Origin: Deltaproteobacteria bacterium
Lineage (GTDB): Bacteria; Myxococcota_A; Polyangia; HGW-17; JAJRWW01
Length of the DNA: 64,000 nt
Assembly: GCA_029938605.1 (NCBI GenBank)
Contig: JAOZUO010000003.1
Location: forward strand, 26,592 to 90,591
Direction: 5' to 3'
Below are positions 2,019 to 61,728 of the stretch, in pieces (the first letter of the stretch is position 1; each line of letters starts with the position of its first letter). A model generated the notes under the pieces. That model worked only from the letters and a program-made list of their open reading frames with translations, was not told where the DNA came from and searched no databases. The position numbers and the translations under genes were made by a program.

Positions 2019-2178
2019 TAGGGTCCGCCTCAAAATAACTCGATCGCTCAGGACGCCGCTGCATCCCGGCTCGCTTCGTTTCTTCTCGTTGCATATCAAT
2101 AAGTATGCGCCTCGTCGTGCCTCGCGAGCCGGGCGCATCGACGCCCTGATTCGAGGACTTATTTTGAGACGGACCCTT
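2019..2178. repeat. ~160-bp imperfect palindromic intergenic element (family C/D), lying between the mscS 3' end and the rpoZ 5' end
   Basis: The left arm agggtccgcctcaaaataact... is nearly the reverse complement of the right arm ...agtcctcgaatcaggg...gagacggaccct. The central 74-nt core gcgcccggctcgcgaggcacgacgaggcgcatacttattgatatgcaacgagaag is identical, in inverted orientation, to the core at 34921-34995. Confidence 0.7.
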
Positions 2179-4656: not shown

Positions 4657-5148
4657 ATGTACAGACTGTGCTCTCTGATGTTTCTGCTCGCTGGGCCGGG
4701 CGATGCTTCGCCGCTTCCCTCGGCGGAGCTGCCGAGCTACGGAGGGTTACTTCTAAAAACCATTCTGGCGCTGGTGATCGTCATCGGGCTGGCCTACGCG
4801 CTGCTGCGCTGGGGGCTCAAACGACTGATGCCCGGGCACGCGTCCGGTGGTGGCGAGATCAGCATTCTGGATCGGCAGCCCTTGGACAGCCGCCGCCAGG
4901 TGGTGCTGGTCAAAGCCTACGGGCGTTACCTGCTGCTGGGCGTGGGGGACGGATCGGTCACGCTCCTGACAGAGCTGGAGGCCGAAGCGGTGGCCGAGGC
5001 CGAGCGACGACGGGCGGCCCATCCCCCGAAGCGCTTCGCCGACGTGCTGCGCTCGGCCCTGGGGCGTAACAAACCTCCCCCCGAGCCCATCACCCCCAGC
5101 GACCACAGCGATGATCGCCAGGCTGACAAGGACCGGCGCGATGAATAG
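4657..5148 (+). CDS. fliO: flagellar-type export apparatus protein, FliO-like
   Basis: Single TM helix (ILALVIVIGLAYALL) followed by the FliO-like motif EISILDRQPLDSRRQVVLVKAYGRYLLLGVGDGSVTLLTEL. Sits immediately upstream of fliPQR. Confidence 0.55.
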   Translation: MYRLCSLMFLLAGPGDASPLPSAELPSYGGLLLKTILALVIVIGLAYALLRWGLKRLMPGHASGGGEISILDRQPLDSRRQVVLVKAYGRYLLLGVGDGSVTLLTELEAEAVAEAERRRAAHPPKRFADVLRSALGRNKPPPEPITPSDHSDDRQADKDRRDE

Positions 5149-5306
5149 GGTCCGACCAGGAATAGGCCGGTCAGCTCAGGTCGTCGAGGCGCCCCGGTGG
5201 CAAGGACCAAGGAGCGAGGAAATCTCCATGATTCCGAGTGACGAGGGACGCAGTCAGCGGGGATGGATCGGCGGGCTGAGCGATCTGCCTATTGCTGGTC
5301 GGACCC
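5145..5306. repeat. ~160-bp imperfect palindromic element with 16-bp terminal inverted repeats (family A/B), between fliO and fliP
   Basis: The 5' end gggtccgaccaggaat is the reverse complement of the 3' end att(g)ctggtcggaccc. It is ~88% identical to 10900-11062. It contains ggagcgagga-N7-ATG (5211-5230) in frame with fliP. Confidence 0.75.
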
Positions 5307-5311
5307 ATAGA

Positions 5312-6037
5312 GTGCTCTCCCTGGGGCTACTCCTACCTCTGCCCGCCCTGGCCCCTTCCGGAGATCGGCTGCTGGACAGCCCGCTGCTGGCCGTACTCGT
5401 CGTGGCCGCGCTGTCGCTGTTGGGCTTCGCCGTGGTGATGCTCACCAGCTTCGTGAAGGTGGCGGTGGTGCTGTCGGTGTTGCGCTCGGCCATGGGCACA
5501 CCCCAGGTGCCGCCCACCCTGGTGATCACCGGCTTGGCCTTCGTGATCGCGGCCTACGTCATGGCGCCGGTGGTTCGGCAGACCGTGCGTATTGTAGAGC
5601 CCGAGGTGGAGCAGCTCAAGGCTGGGGGCGGCTCCACCGCCGAGCAGGTGCAGCGCTACGCGGCGGCGGGAAAAAAGGCCGCTGGACCCATGCGCGGCTT
5701 CCTCAAAAAACACGCCCATTCCCGGGACCGGGCCTCCTTCCTGGCCATGGCCCGGCGCCTGCACGAGCCCCAGGACCGGACGAAGATCCACAGCGACGAC
5801 TTCCTGGTGCTGGTGCCGGCCTTTCTGACCAGCGAGCTGAAGGAGGCCTTCATCATCGGATTCTTTTTGTTCGTGCCGTTTCTGGTGATCGACCTGGTGG
5901 TGGGGAACATCCTGCTGGCCCTGGGCATGCACATGCTGTCGCCCACGACCATCTCCCTGCCCTTCAAGTTCCTGCTCTTCGTGTTGGTGGACGGGTGGCA
6001 CCTGCTGACCCGGGGCCTCATCGCAGGATACCTATAG
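5312..6037 (+). CDS. fliP: type III secretion / flagellar export gate protein FliP (SctR)
   Basis: The FliP family signature TSFVKVAVVLSVLRSAMGTPQVPPTLVITGLAFVIAAYVMAPV and four TM helices. Start taken at GTG 5312; an in-frame ATG at 5228 inside the upstream repeat is an alternative. Confidence 0.85.
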   Translation: MLSLGLLLPLPALAPSGDRLLDSPLLAVLVVAALSLLGFAVVMLTSFVKVAVVLSVLRSAMGTPQVPPTLVITGLAFVIAAYVMAPVVRQTVRIVEPEVEQLKAGGGSTAEQVQRYAAAGKKAAGPMRGFLKKHAHSRDRASFLAMARRLHEPQDRTKIHSDDFLVLVPAFLTSELKEAFIIGFFLFVPFLVIDLVVGNILLALGMHMLSPTTISLPFKFLLFVLVDGWHLLTRGLIAGYL

Positions 6038-6050
6038 CAGGAAATTTATT

Positions 6051-7213: not shown

Positions 7214-9460
7214 ATGGGAAAATGGGAAAAGCTCGCGGATGACATCGAAGACGAAGAGGCGCATACCAAGGTGCCCGAGTTCGAAGACTCAGTGGTGGAC
7301 GTGGTGGATCCAGCAGACGTCACCATGCCGCCAGAGATCCACGGCTGTCAGGTGATCGAGCGGCGCCATCCGGGCGGACAGTCGGAAGTGTTCTACTGCC
7401 GGCCTGACGGCGTGGTCTACTCCGAAGTCCAGGCCACCGAGCTCATGAATGCTTTCCGGGCCGGTGCGGCGGCTGGCGGCCCGCCAGCGGTTAGCGGCCC
7501 GGCGGCCGACATGGTCATCGACACCCTCGGCTCCGGAGAGGACGTGCCCGCGCAGCTCCGAGGCGCGAAGCTGGTGGACCGGGGGGGGAGCTTCTTTTTC
7601 ATCACGGTCGATGGCGGGGAGCTGCCCAAGGAGATAGGCGACAGCCTCTTTGAGGCCTTCGAATCCCCCGAGGTCACCAACCCGGGACTGGAGGTCAAGG
7701 CCGCCGACCTGCCTCAGGAATCCATGCCGGCGCCTCTGCCCACCGAAACGGTCATCGACACCCTGGGCGACGGTCCGGACGTACCTCCGGCGCTCCGCGG
7801 CGCGAACCTGGTGGAGCGGGACGGTAGCTTCTTTTTCATAACACCGGACCAGGAGGCCATCCCCAAGGAGATCGGCGACGATCTGTTCGACGCCTGGGAT
7901 GCGCCGGAAGAGGGGGAGGCCGTCCCCCAGGAACAACCAGCCGCGCCAACGCCGGAGGCTGAGGTACAAGCGCCTGAACCCCAGGCTCAAGAGCCGGAGC
8001 CGGAGCCGGAGCCAGAGCCGGAGCCGGAGCCGGAACCTGAACCCGCACCAGCGCCAGAGTCGGAGGCAGAGGTTCAAGAGCCAGCACCAGCACCAGCGCC
8101 AGAGGCGGAAGCGGAGCCAGAGCCAGAGCCAGAGCCGGAGCCGGAACCAGAGCCGGAGCCGGAGCCGGAACCAGAGCCGGAGCCGGAGCCGGAGCCGGAA
8201 TCAGAACCAGAACCAGAACCAGAACCAGAGGCGGAAGCGGAGCCAGAAGCGGAAGCGGAAGCGGAAGCGGAAGCAAGCAGCCCTGGACCGGAGGAGGAGA
8301 TCCTGGAGTTCCTCGGCACCGGGGAAGAGGTCCCGCCGAGGCTTCGAGGCGGCCGCATGGTCAAACGGGTAGACGGCTTCTATTACGTGACAGCGAACAA
8401 CGAAGTCCTCCCGGCCGATATCGGCGAGGACCTCATTGAGGCCTGGAACTCCGAGGCGGAAGCGGAACCTCCCCCGGCCGACGACCGGGAACCCAACCCC
8501 GTGAACAAACCCTTCGGCTACGGCGACTACGGACCGGTCACCGTCCCGAACTACGTCCTGCCCGAGACCATCGACGTACCCCAGTCAGCCGCTCCAACGG
8601 GGCCGAGCGCCGCGCCCACCGCCGACGAGCCCACCGCCGACGAGCCTACCGCCGACGAACCCACCGCCGACGAGCCCACCGCCGACGAACCCACCGCCGA
8701 CGAGCCCATCGTCGACGAACCCAAAGTCGAGGCAACCTCCGCTCCAGTCACCGAGAAGCTGGAGGCCGGGAGTCTGGAAGATCGGCTCAGACAAGCCGTG
8801 ACCACCGTCCGACGGGAGGCGACCACGGGGGCCTTCAATGTGGCCCAAGCCACCCCCACGCCCGAGCAAATGGAGTCGCTGGTGAACGAGCTCATCGACT
8901 CCGAGCCCACAGACACCATGCTCTCACGCATGGTACTTCGCTCCACCCAACTGACCGAGCAGATCTCCGAAGCCTGGGCGGACGACGAGAGCCGGGGCCG
9001 CCAGGCTCTGCACCGGGACGTAGTCAGCGGCACCTTGCTCGTAGTCGCCGTGAACCCAACCCAACTCAAGGACCTGGATGTGCTCGGCCTGCTCACCCTC
9101 CTTCGCTTTCGCACCACGAAAGGGACCGACCGGGTGGTGGCCGAATTGGCCAAGACCCTACGCTCCAAGCTGGCCGACGATCTCAACCGAGCCATCAAGG
9201 CCTCCTCCCTCACCGACCAGGTCCTGCAGGGCGCACGATCTACGGCCGGCGTCGTCGTCCATGGACAGCTATGGCCCGAGGGGGTCACCCTCCTGGTCGC
9301 CCAGACCATTACCCGCGAGATCTCTCTGACCGTAGGTGAGGTATTGAGCGGCTATCGGGAGAAGGGATACGCCTTCCCGGGCCTTGCGGAAAAGGTCCTC
9401 GAAGCCTATCGTCACTTCGCGACGGATATCGGCGAACGAGTGGCCCGTGCCATCGAGTAG
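7214..9460 (+). CDS. large acidic repeat protein of unknown function
   Basis: 748 aa. It has three tandem ~55-aa repeats ([49 protein letters not shown] and two variants), a long (PE)n/(EPEA)n tract, six PTADE repeats, and a ~230-aa C-terminal region that is not low-complexity. Confidence 0.7.
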
Positions 9461-10845: not shown

Positions 10846-10899
10846 TATGTGATCGAGTGTAAAAGTGTGGTAGTACGACCAGCAATGACTCGCATCCAA

Positions 10900-11062
10900 A
10901 ATAGGGTCCGACCAGGAACAAGCAGGTCTGTTCAGGTCGTCGAGGCGCCCCGCTGGCAAGGACAGAGGAGCGAGGAAATCTCATTGATTCCGAGTAACGA
11001 GGGACGCAGTCAGCGGGGATGGATCGGCGGACTGGGCGATCTGGTTATTCCTGGTCGGGCCC
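10900..11062. repeat. second copy of the family A/B imperfect palindromic element, between the two paralogous lipoprotein genes
   Basis: ~88% identical to 5145-5306. TIRs are gggtccgaccaggaac / attcctggtcgggccc. Carries gaggaaatctcaTTG in frame with the downstream gene. Confidence 0.75.
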
Positions 11063-11940
11063 TTAGCCGATGGTCCTTCGGCCTGATCGTCTTCGCTGGG
11101 CTGGTACTAGCCGACGGTGGCTGCTCCAAGAGTCGGGCGGACGATTTCTCGAAGTTCAAGCCGTCAGAGTCCCTCCAGTCCCCGGGCGCCACTCCGCGTA
11201 CGCAGCTACGCTATCGCCCCCCCGCGGGCCAGGACGTGACCTACCAGCTCATCGTGAACCGTCAGTGCCAAGCCCTCGGCCTCCAGGCGAAGATGCGGCT
11301 GCGGGTGGCCTTGAAGGTGGACACCCTGAGCAGCGGTGGAGGCTCCTTTGTGCTGCGCTTGATCAGCCTACAGCGACTGCAACCCCTTCCCCCCGGCGGG
11401 CTGCCTGAGCTGGGACCCGCCTACGTACTGCTCCAGGGCCGAATCGGACCTCGGGGACGATTGACCGAAATTCAGGACGGCGACAGGTTGCCCACACCGG
11501 TGAACCTCGCCCTCGTGTTGCCGCTGCTGCTGCCCCGTTTGCCCGAGTCCTCCGTGGGCATCGGCGCCACCTGGCGCACGTCGGCTAAGCAGCGCTGGAA
11601 GCGCGTCCATTCCGCCGACGCGCTCACCAGCCAGCCGGGCTTCAACGGCTCCACGGAGGTGCTGCTGCACAGCGCCTACAAGCTCACCGCGCTGCAAAAC
11701 GCCAACCAACCCGTGCTCCAGGGCGACCTCAGTTTCAAGCTCCGCAGCCGCACCCGCGCCCTGAGCCACGCTACCCACCATGGAGGTCAAGGCAAAGCCA
11801 CGGCGCGCTACGTTCTGGACCCCACCACCTCTCTCCCCGTCCACGCCAAGGTCACCCTCCAAGGCACGTACAAGCTACACGCCAACGACAAAACCGCCCC
11901 CATCAAAGAGACCATCGAGCTAACCTTCAAACAGGACTGA
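10984..11940 (+). CDS. lipoprotein, paralog 2. The start is uncertain; a TTG inside the repeat element is the first in-frame start.
   Basis: Same frame as track ORF 10849-11940. Has a hydrophobic leader SFGLIVFAGLVLADGGC and TQLRYRPPAGQ resembling paralog 1. No ATG or GTG lies between the repeat and the leader. Confidence 0.45.
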   Translation: MIPSNEGRSQRGWIGGLGDLVIPGRALSRWSFGLIVFAGLVLADGGCSKSRADDFSKFKPSESLQSPGATPRTQLRYRPPAGQDVTYQLIVNRQCQALGLQAKMRLRVALKVDTLSSGGGSFVLRLISLQRLQPLPPGGLPELGPAYVLLQGRIGPRGRLTEIQDGDRLPTPVNLALVLPLLLPRLPESSVGIGATWRTSAKQRWKRVHSADALTSQPGFNGSTEVLLHSAYKLTALQNANQPVLQGDLSFKLRSRTRALSHATHHGGQGKATARYVLDPTTSLPVHAKVTLQGTYKLHANDKTAPIKETIELTFKQD

Positions 11941-22957: not shown

Positions 22958-23565
22958 CGTCTCGCAGCCTCACAGCCTCGCAGCGCACTGCATATCCGCT
23001 GAAGGCCCCACGCGGGGAGACGGATCTCTGAATAAGGTCCAAACCGGCAGAAATCGATGTACTTCGTTTTCAGCAGAGTTTCTCCCTGATAAAGAAAAAA
23101 ATCCGAACACCCAGACGTCAGGGGTCACCCACACCGCCAGCGCTACGCACCAGGCTCGCGGTCAACGGCGTGTCAGTACAGTGAGGGCGGAGGAGGATAA
23201 TCGGACGCCAAAGACGTGCTCCACTGCGGCGAGGCAGACGAACGTCGCCACCGGTGGTTCCGCCGCCGGGCAGACGGCCGGCAGGGACCACCGGAACTTC
23301 CCAACTGGGGCCCACCGGCGCTGAAGCGAACGTCGCCCAATCCGGTACTCAGGGATCCCGTGGGCTGTCCCGTCGTGGATCGGCACCCTTCGCAGCTCAC
23401 AGCGGGCGCATACCTGTCTAGGTGCCCAAACCGCATTCCCGATGGTTGAATCCTTGGGTTTTTCCCCGACTGCGCCAACCGCTGGTGAAAAAACTCATCC
23501 CAGCACCACCGATGTTCTCGCCGCCGCCGACACCTACGTCGACCAGCGCTTAGTGGCCGTTGAAT

Positions 23566-23752
23566 GTTTCACTTTTTCGCCAGATAAATCACCTCTGCCA
23601 AATCTGAAACAGAAAGGGCCCTTTGGTGTTCCACTTTCGGCCCAGATGCGTCATCTCAGCCAAATCTGAAATAGATTTGGCCCTTTGGTGTTCCACTTTC
23701 CCGTCAGATAAATCATCCCAACCGATTCTGAAACAAATCTCCGCTGACAGAG
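23566..23752. repeat. ~62-bp tandem repeat x3, each unit carrying a hairpin (ccaaatctgaaatagatttgg), inside a 1.2-kb non-coding region
   Basis: The units begin gtttcactttttcgccagataaatc..., gttccactttcggcccagatgcgtc... and gttccactttcccgtcagataaatc.... The palindrome in the central unit is perfect. Confidence 0.6.
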
Positions 23753-34879: not shown

Positions 34880-35056
34880 GGCTAAGGGCCCGCTCGAATA
34901 TTAGTTGTCCAGTTCAGGGCGTTGAGGCGCCCGGCTCGCGAGGCACGACGAGGCGCATACTTATTGATATGCAACGAGAAGTAACGAAGCGAGCCAGCGA
35001 TGCATCGGCGGCCTGAGTGATCAAGTAATATTCGATCGGGTCCTAAGGGCCCTAAT
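34880..35056. repeat. ~175-bp imperfect palindromic element (family C/D), second copy, downstream of the tRNA pair
   Basis: Shares the 74-nt core (34921-34995) with 2019-2178 in inverted orientation. Its arms end in gggccc-containing termini and are self-complementary at ~65%. Confidence 0.7.
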
Positions 35057-39817: not shown

Positions 39818-40110
39818 TCGCTCGCTTAGCCCCCGCTACGGATGTTCCCCTTGCCGCTCCAGCGGGGCGCTGCAAGAGCGGCTGCGGAGAAATCCTCCAC
39901 GGGGGCGACGCTCGCTGGGTGGTGCTTACACGGAAATTTGCGAGGCATACGATACTCGATGATACGCGCTGTGCCGCTCGCTTAGCCCCCGTTCCGGATG
40001 TTCCCCTTGCCGCTCCAGCGGGGCGCTGCAAGAGCGGCTGCGGAGAAATCCTCCACGGGGGCGACGCTCGCTGGGTGGTGCTTACACGGAAATTTGCGAG
40101 GCATACGATC
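39818..40110. repeat. tandem direct repeat, 2 x 156 bp, in the cooC-acsE intergenic region
   Basis: The unit ctcgcttagcccccg(c/t)t(a/c)cggatgttccccttgccgctccagcggggcgctgcaagagcggctgcggagaaatcctccacgggggcgacgctcgctgggtggtgcttacacggaaatttgcgaggcatacgat recurs at 39821 and 39977. Each unit holds the hairpin gccgctc...gagcggc. Confidence 0.8.
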
Positions 40111-40174
40111 AACGGAGCGGACGCGGAGCGGACTATCCGAGCTCGGTAACGAGGAAAACGGCTCTACATAAGTG

Positions 40175-40262
40175 AGCGGAGCCCGCACGGAGGATTTCAC
40201 GGCAGCCGCTCTCGCAGCGCTTCGCTGGAGCGGCAGAGTGAATCCTTCGTGTGGGCGAAGCG
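40175..40262. repeat. partial third copy of the 156-bp unit, in inverted orientation
   Basis: cggaggatttcacggcagccgctctcgcagcgcttcgctggagcggcagagtgaatcc is the reverse complement of the unit core with a few substitutions. Confidence 0.65.
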
Positions 40263-61489: not shown

Positions 61490-61728
61490 GGGGACTCCTA
61501 CAGTAACCCGAGTGGAGGTCCGCCGTCGACTGGGATTCGACTGTTTGTGTAAGGGTCCGCGAATGGACAACTCCGTCGCCCTAGCCGCCGATCCATCCCG
61601 CTGGGCGGCCATCATCGATCGAGTTGTCTATTCGCGGACCCTAAGTCTACTCTACGGGCTTGCCGCGGACGCTGGTTCATGTCATGGATACGTTCTGCGG
61701 CTGGCCACCGGCCCGAGGATATGGCAAC

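Follow-up and report, generated by a model that had tools for sequence, protein, structure and literature searches.

A palindromic MITE carried in frame near the start of a lipoprotein gene in a GC-rich bacterium

Introduction

Several groups of short repeats bear on the locus described here. Correia elements give rise to long mRNA hairpins that are RNase III substrates, and MIRU repeats occupy the junctions between operon genes, where the ends of their small open reading frames (ORFs) overlap the flanking stop and start codons. Rickettsia palindromic elements were reportedly described by Ogata et al. in 2000. Fusion in frame to genes, 5' extensions included, is documented for RPE, BRE, BOX, RUP and ERIC-like palindromic repeats (Delihas, 2011; PMC3184786), while Neisseria REP2 and Borrelia inverted repeats can place a promoter, a ribosome-binding site (RBS) and an ATG immediately upstream of genes (PMC3184786). 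A 3-bp target-site duplication (TSD) of TWA type, either TTA or TAA, is the hallmark of PIF/Harbinger elements (PMC2213677).

The element considered here is a 159-bp palindrome at positions 10904-11062 of the window, that is, of the whole 64-kb stretch of DNA analysed. The host is GC-rich (64%), with an SctR-type secretion operon and serine/threonine kinase genes nearby. Sequence comparison makes it very likely that the palindrome is a MITE whose in-frame insertion into a lipoprotein gene has been tolerated, with the ancestral ATG lying upstream of it and no start inside the element required. It very likely belongs to a previously undescribed family of palindromic MITEs of about 157 bp, from a poorly sampled lineage. 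Neither elements of this kind nor effects of this kind are new.

The closest functional counterparts are RPE, BRE, BOX and RUP, which are likewise short (about 100-150 bp) palindromic mobile repeats that sit in frame, add a peptide and keep the ORF, but which have no sequence similarity to this family and belong to another host lineage. The present family is set apart by its clear 3-bp A/T TSDs and GGGYCCG termini, and by coding insertions that, in the three intact cases seen, appear to lie in cleaved n-regions rather than in mature protein segments. Stop-free, in-frame insertion into coding sequence is shared with RPE, yet the host is a 64% GC organism rather than Rickettsia and neither an Rfam nor a protein-level match was found; the resemblance to RPE is functional only. 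Neisseria REP2, the Borrelia repeats and Correia elements are comparable as repeats able to supply translation or transcription signals to an adjacent gene. The present element differs from the Neisseria and Borrelia repeats in its unrelated sequence, in showing no promoter-like site, in having the host gene's own start upstream, and in that its internal SD and TTG are candidates. Tourist-like MITEs of the PIF/Harbinger-IS5 superfamily share a TWA TSD, G-rich termini, small size and a preference for genes, but are eukaryotic, whereas this family also has ATA TSDs and no identified transposase partner. An IS5 (IS1031/ISL2-like) assignment, drawn from TSD lengths, is taken here as a lead only. 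MIRU is brought to mind by a second copy placed exactly on the stop/start overlap of two operon genes, but MIRU consists of tandem, minisatellite-like units without terminal inverted repeats (TIRs), TSDs or a hairpin.

Element structure and empty sites

The window harbors two copies of subfamily A on its plus strand, copy 1 at 5148-5306 and copy 2 at 10904-11062. Each is 159 bp long, and the two agree at 142 of 159 positions (89%; nhmmer E about 1e-40), confirming a preliminary description in which the latter figured as the second copy of an A/B element with TIRs and an internal block. Copy 2 is a near-perfect palindrome with a left TIR, GGGTCCGACCAGGAA, at 10904-10918 and a right TIR at 11048-11062 that reads GGGCCCGACCAGGAA on the minus strand. 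The GGGTCCGACCAGGAA repeat is present at all four ends of the two copies with zero or one mismatch; the pattern has 10 matches in the window against 3.4 expected, and matches of this quality occur only at the four element ends. The internal block, CAGGTCGTCGAGGCGCCCC, is exact in both copies, where chance would give 0.15 matches. Both copies run from GGGTCCG to CGGRCCC between 3-bp A/T duplications, which are ATA (10901-10903) and TTA (11063-11065) for copy 2 and ATA/ATA (5145-5147 and 5307-5309) for copy 1. Each folds from end to end into a single hairpin, at -97 kcal/mol for copy 2 (z = -10) and -104 kcal/mol for copy 1 (z about -10). A hairpin element of REP/REPIN or IS200/IS605 type was considered and rejected because such elements make no TSD.

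The state of the locus before insertion is preserved in a syntenic contig, L004 (GCA_030594985.1), which aligns with the window over 10.4 kb at 96.2% DNA identity. The alignment of L004 with the window breaks exactly at the ends of both A elements, and both sites are empty in L004, each with one copy of the target triplet, giving the window a net gain of 162 bp per site (159 bp plus a 3-bp duplication, equal to 54 codons). At the lipoprotein gene, L004 reads ATGAATCGCATTAAGA-TTA-GCCGATGG, with a single TTA, where the window reads ...AAAATA[159 bp]TTAGCCGATGG; at the FliP/SctR gene, L004 reads GATGAATAGGATCC where the window reads GATGAATA[159 bp]ATAGAGTG. By these alignments, both A elements are insertions of 159 bp plus a 3-bp duplication, and both insertions are younger than the 3.8% DNA divergence from L004. 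Empty element sites are seen in L004, L005 and L011.

A search for Logan contigs of the same locus returned one, L003 (from SRR21545381), which ends 26 nt inside the element's right arm (L003:8656-8681). A break within the element is expected in a short-read contig if the element is repeated in that sample, and since L003 reaches 26 nt into the element, the insertion allele exists in an independent public dataset.

The lipoprotein gene

The preliminary description placed copy 2 between two paralogous lipoprotein genes. Copy 2 lies instead within the 5' end of the downstream gene, which spans 10885-11940 on the plus strand and comprises 351 codons, or 297 without the insertion. Both genes do encode lipoproteins; their paralogy is weakly supported, with a BLASTP E of 3e-4 over 36 aa.

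The starts of homologues and the DNA alignment with L004 identify the ATG at 10885-10887 (plus strand) as the ancestral start. This ATG is in frame, 19 nt 5' of the element and six codons before the insertion point, which falls in the n-region of the lipoprotein signal peptide. The frame that it opens continues across all 53 element codons, and the insertion adds 54 stop-free codons after codon 6. Removal of the element with one flanking triplet yields MTRIQNSRWSFGLIVFAGLVLADGGC..., a standard lipoprotein signal peptide, at the head of a 297-aa protein. A search with this reconstructed protein found 13 homologues at 38-97% identity, mostly 296-298 aa long (range 284-311). The 13 homologues begin at the equivalent of ATG 10885, and alignment with them shows one insert in the window protein, 54 residues long and placed behind residue 6. 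The lipobox Cys (codon 11122-11124) is invariant in 14 of 14 aligned sequences, and the nearest homologue, P0001 (97%), is encoded on L004. A frameshift or sequencing error behind an ORF from an ATG at 11070 was ruled out, since the frame-1 protein is conserved in the 13 homologues.

The FliP/SctR gene carrying copy 1

Copy 1 lies at the stop of a FliO-domain gene (TAG 5146-5148) and after codon 2 of a FliP/SctR-family gene. The ancestral ATG of the FliP/SctR gene (5141-5143, plus strand) sits two codons before copy 1, in a ATGAATAG overlap with the upstream stop. In four of four relatives (L004, L005, L006/L007 and L011/L012), the FliP/SctR start is an ATG that overlaps the stop of the FliO-domain gene. 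The protein is 244 aa long in relatives and 298 aa (244 + 54) when read from ATG 5141 in the window. A GTG at 5312 was tried as the ancestral start and rejected, as all relatives examined use the stop-overlapping ATG.

The protein encoded at 5312-6037 scores above the NCBIfam cut-off as SctR/YscR and below it for flagellar FliP. It keeps a FliP-like N-terminal signal peptide, and the upstream gene (4657-5148) has a FliO domain.

Two further features of the operon were observed. At the position between the sctR stop and the sctS start, L004 carries a different insert of about 150 bp (L004:2446-2606, corresponding to window 6038-6050), with imperfect inverted ends GAGCATCCCGACAAAA and GAGCTTCCCTACAAAT, where the window has 13 bp; small mobile elements seem to insert preferentially at the junctions of this secretion operon. 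A 748-aa ORF at 7214-9460, 3' of a sctT-like gene, is without a Pfam or NCBIfam match. This ORF contains long runs of 6-, 12- and 15-nt coding repeats at 7978-8294 and 8593-8742, made of GAGCCG-type units together with ACCGCCGACGAGCCC, which encodes TADEP, and the length of the protein in relatives is 689-761 aa.

Family members and hairpin covariation

Eight family members are available, seven of them full-size and one of 89 bp. Subfamily A consists of copies 1 and 2, and subfamily B of the remaining five full-size copies. Three members beyond the A copies lie in the window, all of them intergenic. A 156-bp subfamily-B member at 2021-2176 (minus strand; TSD TAA/TAA) directly follows the TGA of an MscS-like gene, and a 158-bp subfamily-B member at 34886-35043 (plus strand; TSD TAA/TAA) lies 3' of two tRNA genes. 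The 89-bp derivative at 61553-61641 (plus strand; GGGTCCG...CGGACCC ends, TSD TAA/TAA) lies upstream of clpX, in the divergent intergenic region between the start of a minus-strand gene (about 61490) and that of clpX (ATG 61729). This derivative has a GGGATGGATCGGCGG block in common with subfamily A. The preliminary description had based its case on two of two copies lying in frame with the downstream gene. The in-frame arrangement does hold for both A copies, but the count was incomplete by at least these three.

Related loci and metagenomes supply the other members. A subfamily-B copy at L006:1035-1191 adjoins the stop codon of the MscS gene in L006/L007, a more distant relative than L004. 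Its orientation is opposite to that of the window copy at the MscS-like gene, which marks the two as independent insertions. A six-frame concatenated peptide search uncovered two metagenomic proteins that contain an element, P0014 and P0015, at loci L009 and L010. The subfamily-B copy at L009:2289-2444 is inserted in frame, in reverse orientation, into the signal-peptide region of a gene for a TPR lipoprotein (pre-insertion sequence MMRILQDPRTFTLFALGLVGLMAAGC, TSD TTA/TTA). The ancestral ATG of this gene follows a strong SD, gaggagg. The L009 element has no internal SD yet is, to judge from its reading frame, translated through in this unrelated lipoprotein gene. The subfamily-B copy at L010:644-799 lies in the middle of a methyltransferase gene, which is split by a TGA that the element introduces in frame.

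TIRs, TSDs, small size, dispersed copies and empty sites together match the definition of a MITE. Both ends carry GGGTCCGACCAGGAA and the whole element is self-complementary; 3-bp A/T flanks occur in eight of eight elements and two orthologous sites are empty; the elements measure 89-159 bp, have no transposase gene and contain a longest reading of 53 codons; and five copies are dispersed in the 64-kb window, with others in L006/L007, L009 and L010. The TSDs are perfect in five of eight elements (ATA, TAA three times, and TTA) and differ by one base in three. The 3-bp TWA duplication associated with IS5 and PIF/Harbinger is seen in five of the eight, as TAA or TTA, and the rest are ATA or TAT-like.

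Against a MITE stands the lack of an autonomous transposase with matching ends in the window or the examined loci, where no pair of matching ends was found up to 3 kb apart. The central 20-mer had two chance matches among 185,579 genomes (a Novosphingobium MAG and Variovorax), neither of them element-like. A TIR-gap-TIR pattern had no matches in JGI metagenomes, the A and B cores had none in IMG/VR, and back-translated peptide patterns gave 257 pattern matches in metagenomes, of which 0 were confirmed. The element's open reading has no homologue among 5.8 billion proteins, and when the B-type reading was run with HMMER against 1.84 billion representatives, only P0015 and one weak match were returned; all searches combined, the B-type reading is contained in two or three proteins only. 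A promoter and terminator scan around the element gave nothing relevant and no promoter-like site, and a literature search with the accessions and for MITEs of Myxococc* gave nothing relevant.

Subfamilies A and B share the termini GGGYCCG...CGGRCCC and internal blocks, and their sub-terminal arms vary from copy to copy. Covariation between the arms is strong though conservation is limited to the outer 7 nt: 91.5% of cells are paired and both sides have changed in 19 of 57 pairs, a level reached by 0 of 500 shuffles, with 31-41% pairing in slid controls. Owing to shared G-U pairs, the fold of each of the seven full-size copies is 5-32 kcal/mol more stable on the model strand than on the complementary one. 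The subfamily-B core (roughly 80 nt) has hardly changed between genomes that share only about 70% identity in the proteins encoded alongside the element. The arm covariation, the strand bias and the invariant B core hint at a hairpin-dependent transposition step or at selection at the RNA level.

The same observations could be accommodated by a structured RNA selected by the host, either an element that governs mRNA processing or stability or a regulatory leader for the secretion operon, for which mobility would be secondary. Covariation maintains the stem, and the four full-size window copies are all co-oriented with local transcription. This interpretation is nonetheless very unlikely. Rfam reports only two tRNAs, both at the gathering threshold and at E <= 1, and leaves the element unmatched; orthologous sites are empty in close relatives; the copies occupy unrelated contexts in both orientations, and one disrupts a gene; and the strand asymmetry comes largely from a few inherited G-U positions. 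The TSDs, moreover, indicate transposition, and a mobile MITE family remains the preferred reading.

Repeats of other kinds are also present in the window. Two 135-nt direct repeats at 39819-40242 are 99% identical and 156 nt apart, and the same segment contains a 72-nt inverted partial copy (81% complementary). Three tandem 62-nt units at 23555-23740 (about 71% identical) are A/T-richer than their surroundings and each contains CCAAATCTGAAAYAGA; candidate interpretations are iteron-like repeats, binding-site repeats and an array of small RNAs.

In-frame arrangement and location at 5' ends

The length of the element together with its TSD is a multiple of three in five of seven full-size copies, both A copies (162 bp) included. 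The downstream frame is then kept automatically, and a stop-free reading becomes decisive. Only one of the six readings of each A copy is stop-free (+2), and both copies use it. The L009 copy has two stop-free readings and uses one, whereas the L010 copy is read in a stop-containing reading and its gene is broken. If unselected, three stop-free readings would arise with a chance of about 1/108, which favours survivorship under purifying selection rather than design. Survival of the tolerated insertions of a mobile element explains the in-frame arrangement, which the preliminary description had correctly recognised, better than does a dedicated module for translation starts.

The location at 5' ends follows from the scarcity of A/T-only targets within GC-rich genes, combined with selection against disruptive insertions. 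Counts of TAA, TTA, ATA and TAT in 51 called genes of related loci gave 0.0042 target sites per nt in gene bodies, 0.0135 in the first 16 codons, 0.026 in the last six codons and 0.025 in intergenic DNA. The first 16 codons exceed gene bodies 3.2-fold in the density of target trinucleotides, and stop regions and intergenic DNA exceed them about sixfold. Seven of eight elements lie at such target-rich places, the exception being the L010 copy. The three intact coding insertions all appear, from their predicted signal peptides, to lie in the n-region, which is of FliP type for copy 1 and of lipoprotein type for copy 2 and the L009 copy.

In standard Sec/Lsp biology the signal-peptide n-region is removed on maturation, and probable loss of the insert at that step would account for the tolerance of the insertion. 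In the preferred explanation, copy 2 entered the lipoprotein gene after codon 6 at an A/T-only target of the kind that the family duplicates (TAA, TTA or ATA), and its 162 bp, read in the only stop-free reading, left the frame from ATG 10885 to the stop at 11940 intact. The lipoprotein gene is probably still expressed. Ribosomes that begin at ATG 10885 would translate through the element and produce a precursor with a long Arg-rich n-region, and part of the ribosomes may begin at the element's GAGG-N7-TTG at the hairpin apex. Since the extra residues lie upstream of the lipobox Cys, they would be removed with the signal peptide and the mature lipoprotein would be unchanged. The resulting n-region, of roughly 63 residues, would be unusual in its length for a lipoprotein signal peptide and could disturb targeting, which counts against this explanation.

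The two insertions might alternatively be recent accidents, effectively neutral or mildly harmful, in genes that have little expression or are decaying into pseudogenes, with the in-frame, stop-free state a matter of luck. The family does break genes, as at L010, and the insertions are young by comparison with L004. A length divisible by three keeps the downstream frame automatically, and the -97 kcal/mol mRNA hairpin could hinder translation or invite RNase III cleavage. Luck is nevertheless a quite unlikely explanation, given that both A copies use their single stop-free reading of six and the L009 copy one of its two, with the chance of about 1/108 given above. Apart from the insertions, the host ORFs (244 and 297 codons) show no damage and are 97% identical to uninterrupted orthologues, and the three intact cases all seem to fall in a signal-peptide n-region that is cleaved. 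Survivorship of tolerated insertions accounts for these observations more readily.

Choice of start codon

The preliminary description had pointed to an RBS and a TTG start at 10984 inside copy 2. Both are present: an SD-like GAGG (10973-10976) lies 7 nt upstream of a TTG (10984-10986) at the hairpin apex (10973-10986, plus strand), and this candidate internal start is in frame with the downstream ORF. It was likewise correct that no ATG or GTG precedes the hydrophobic leader downstream of the element; the segment from 11063 to the leader also has no in-frame TTG. The conclusion drawn from this, that for want of another start translation initiates inside the element, does not follow, because ATG 10885 is in frame upstream and the homologues begin at it. 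Initiation inside the element therefore loses the argument from a missing start and keeps an SD and TTG that are accessible in silico.

The two candidates differ in their predicted properties. ATG 10885 has no recognisable SD, whereas TTG 10984 has GAGG. The TTG lies in a weakly paired apex of roughly 45 nt, and opening it is estimated to cost 13.0 kcal/mol, compared with 7-14 kcal/mol for other genes here. The estimated opening cost of ATG 10885 is 10.5 kcal/mol with the element and 10.8 kcal/mol without it; its accessibility is unchanged because the hairpin begins at +19. In copy 1, where the counterpart of TTG 10984 is ATG 5228, the hairpin begins at +7 of ATG 5141 and raises the opening cost of that start from 12.8 to 28.4 kcal/mol. 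The alternatives, ATG 5228 and GTG 5312, have opening costs of 14.0 and 14.9 kcal/mol. Given the cost modelled for ATG 5141, copy 1 seems a better candidate than copy 2 for internal or downstream initiation, unless coupling to a terminating upstream ribosome opens the stem.

These properties raise the possibility that the apex is a portable RBS and start, from which the lipoprotein and FliP/SctR would be translated mainly from inside the element. In both A copies GAGG stands 7-8 nt before the TTG or ATG, GGAG, GAGG and AAGGA motifs are used by most genes here, and the opening costs at the apex (13-14 kcal/mol) resemble those of other genes, and at copy 1 the hairpin is predicted to make the ancestral start harder to open. 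A GAGG-N(8-10)-WTGAT motif is retained in six of seven copies, across both subfamilies. A public gene call, P0017 (318 aa), begins at TTG 10984 and matches the window ORF read from that codon without a difference, and a start at this codon would give an n-region of about 30 aa rather than about 63 aa. A precedent exists in the promoter, RBS and ATG of the Neisseria REP2 and Borrelia repeats (PMC3184786). Initiation mainly inside the element is still somewhat doubtful. The in-frame ancestral ATG 10885 has been left intact and is predicted to be no less accessible than in the empty allele, TTG is weak as a start codon, and a gene caller's choice is no evidence of initiation. Across the family, copy cY has in-frame stops after its apex TTG and the L010 copy has CTG instead, most members are intergenic or oppositely oriented so that the motif is unable to serve a gene, and the L009 copy appears to be translated through without an internal SD. 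Translation from the ancestral ATG through a tolerated insertion is the preferred reading for copy 2, and the two starts, ATG 10885 and TTG 10984, are not mutually exclusive.

A stronger proposal is that the family evolved to be coding-compatible, with a frame-preserving length, a stop-free Arg-rich reading able to serve as a signal-peptide n-region, and an SD and start at the open apex, so that re-initiation would rescue insertions into the early codons of genes for exported proteins. This proposal is unlikely. If it were true, the MITE would be a mobile cassette that replaces translation starts, and it could rewire the expression of secretion-system and lipoprotein genes.

Significance

For annotation, the ancestral ATGs of both genes (10885 and 5141) lie upstream of the elements, and the P0017 gene call begins at a transposon-borne TTG. 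For biology, the locus provides a clean case, verified by empty sites, of in-frame insertion by a bacterial MITE. A simple rule for GC-rich genomes may follow, namely that such insertions are tolerated where the early codons of a cleaved signal peptide are rich in A/T. Should the internal start prove functional, the element would be a natural mobile RBS and start cassette.
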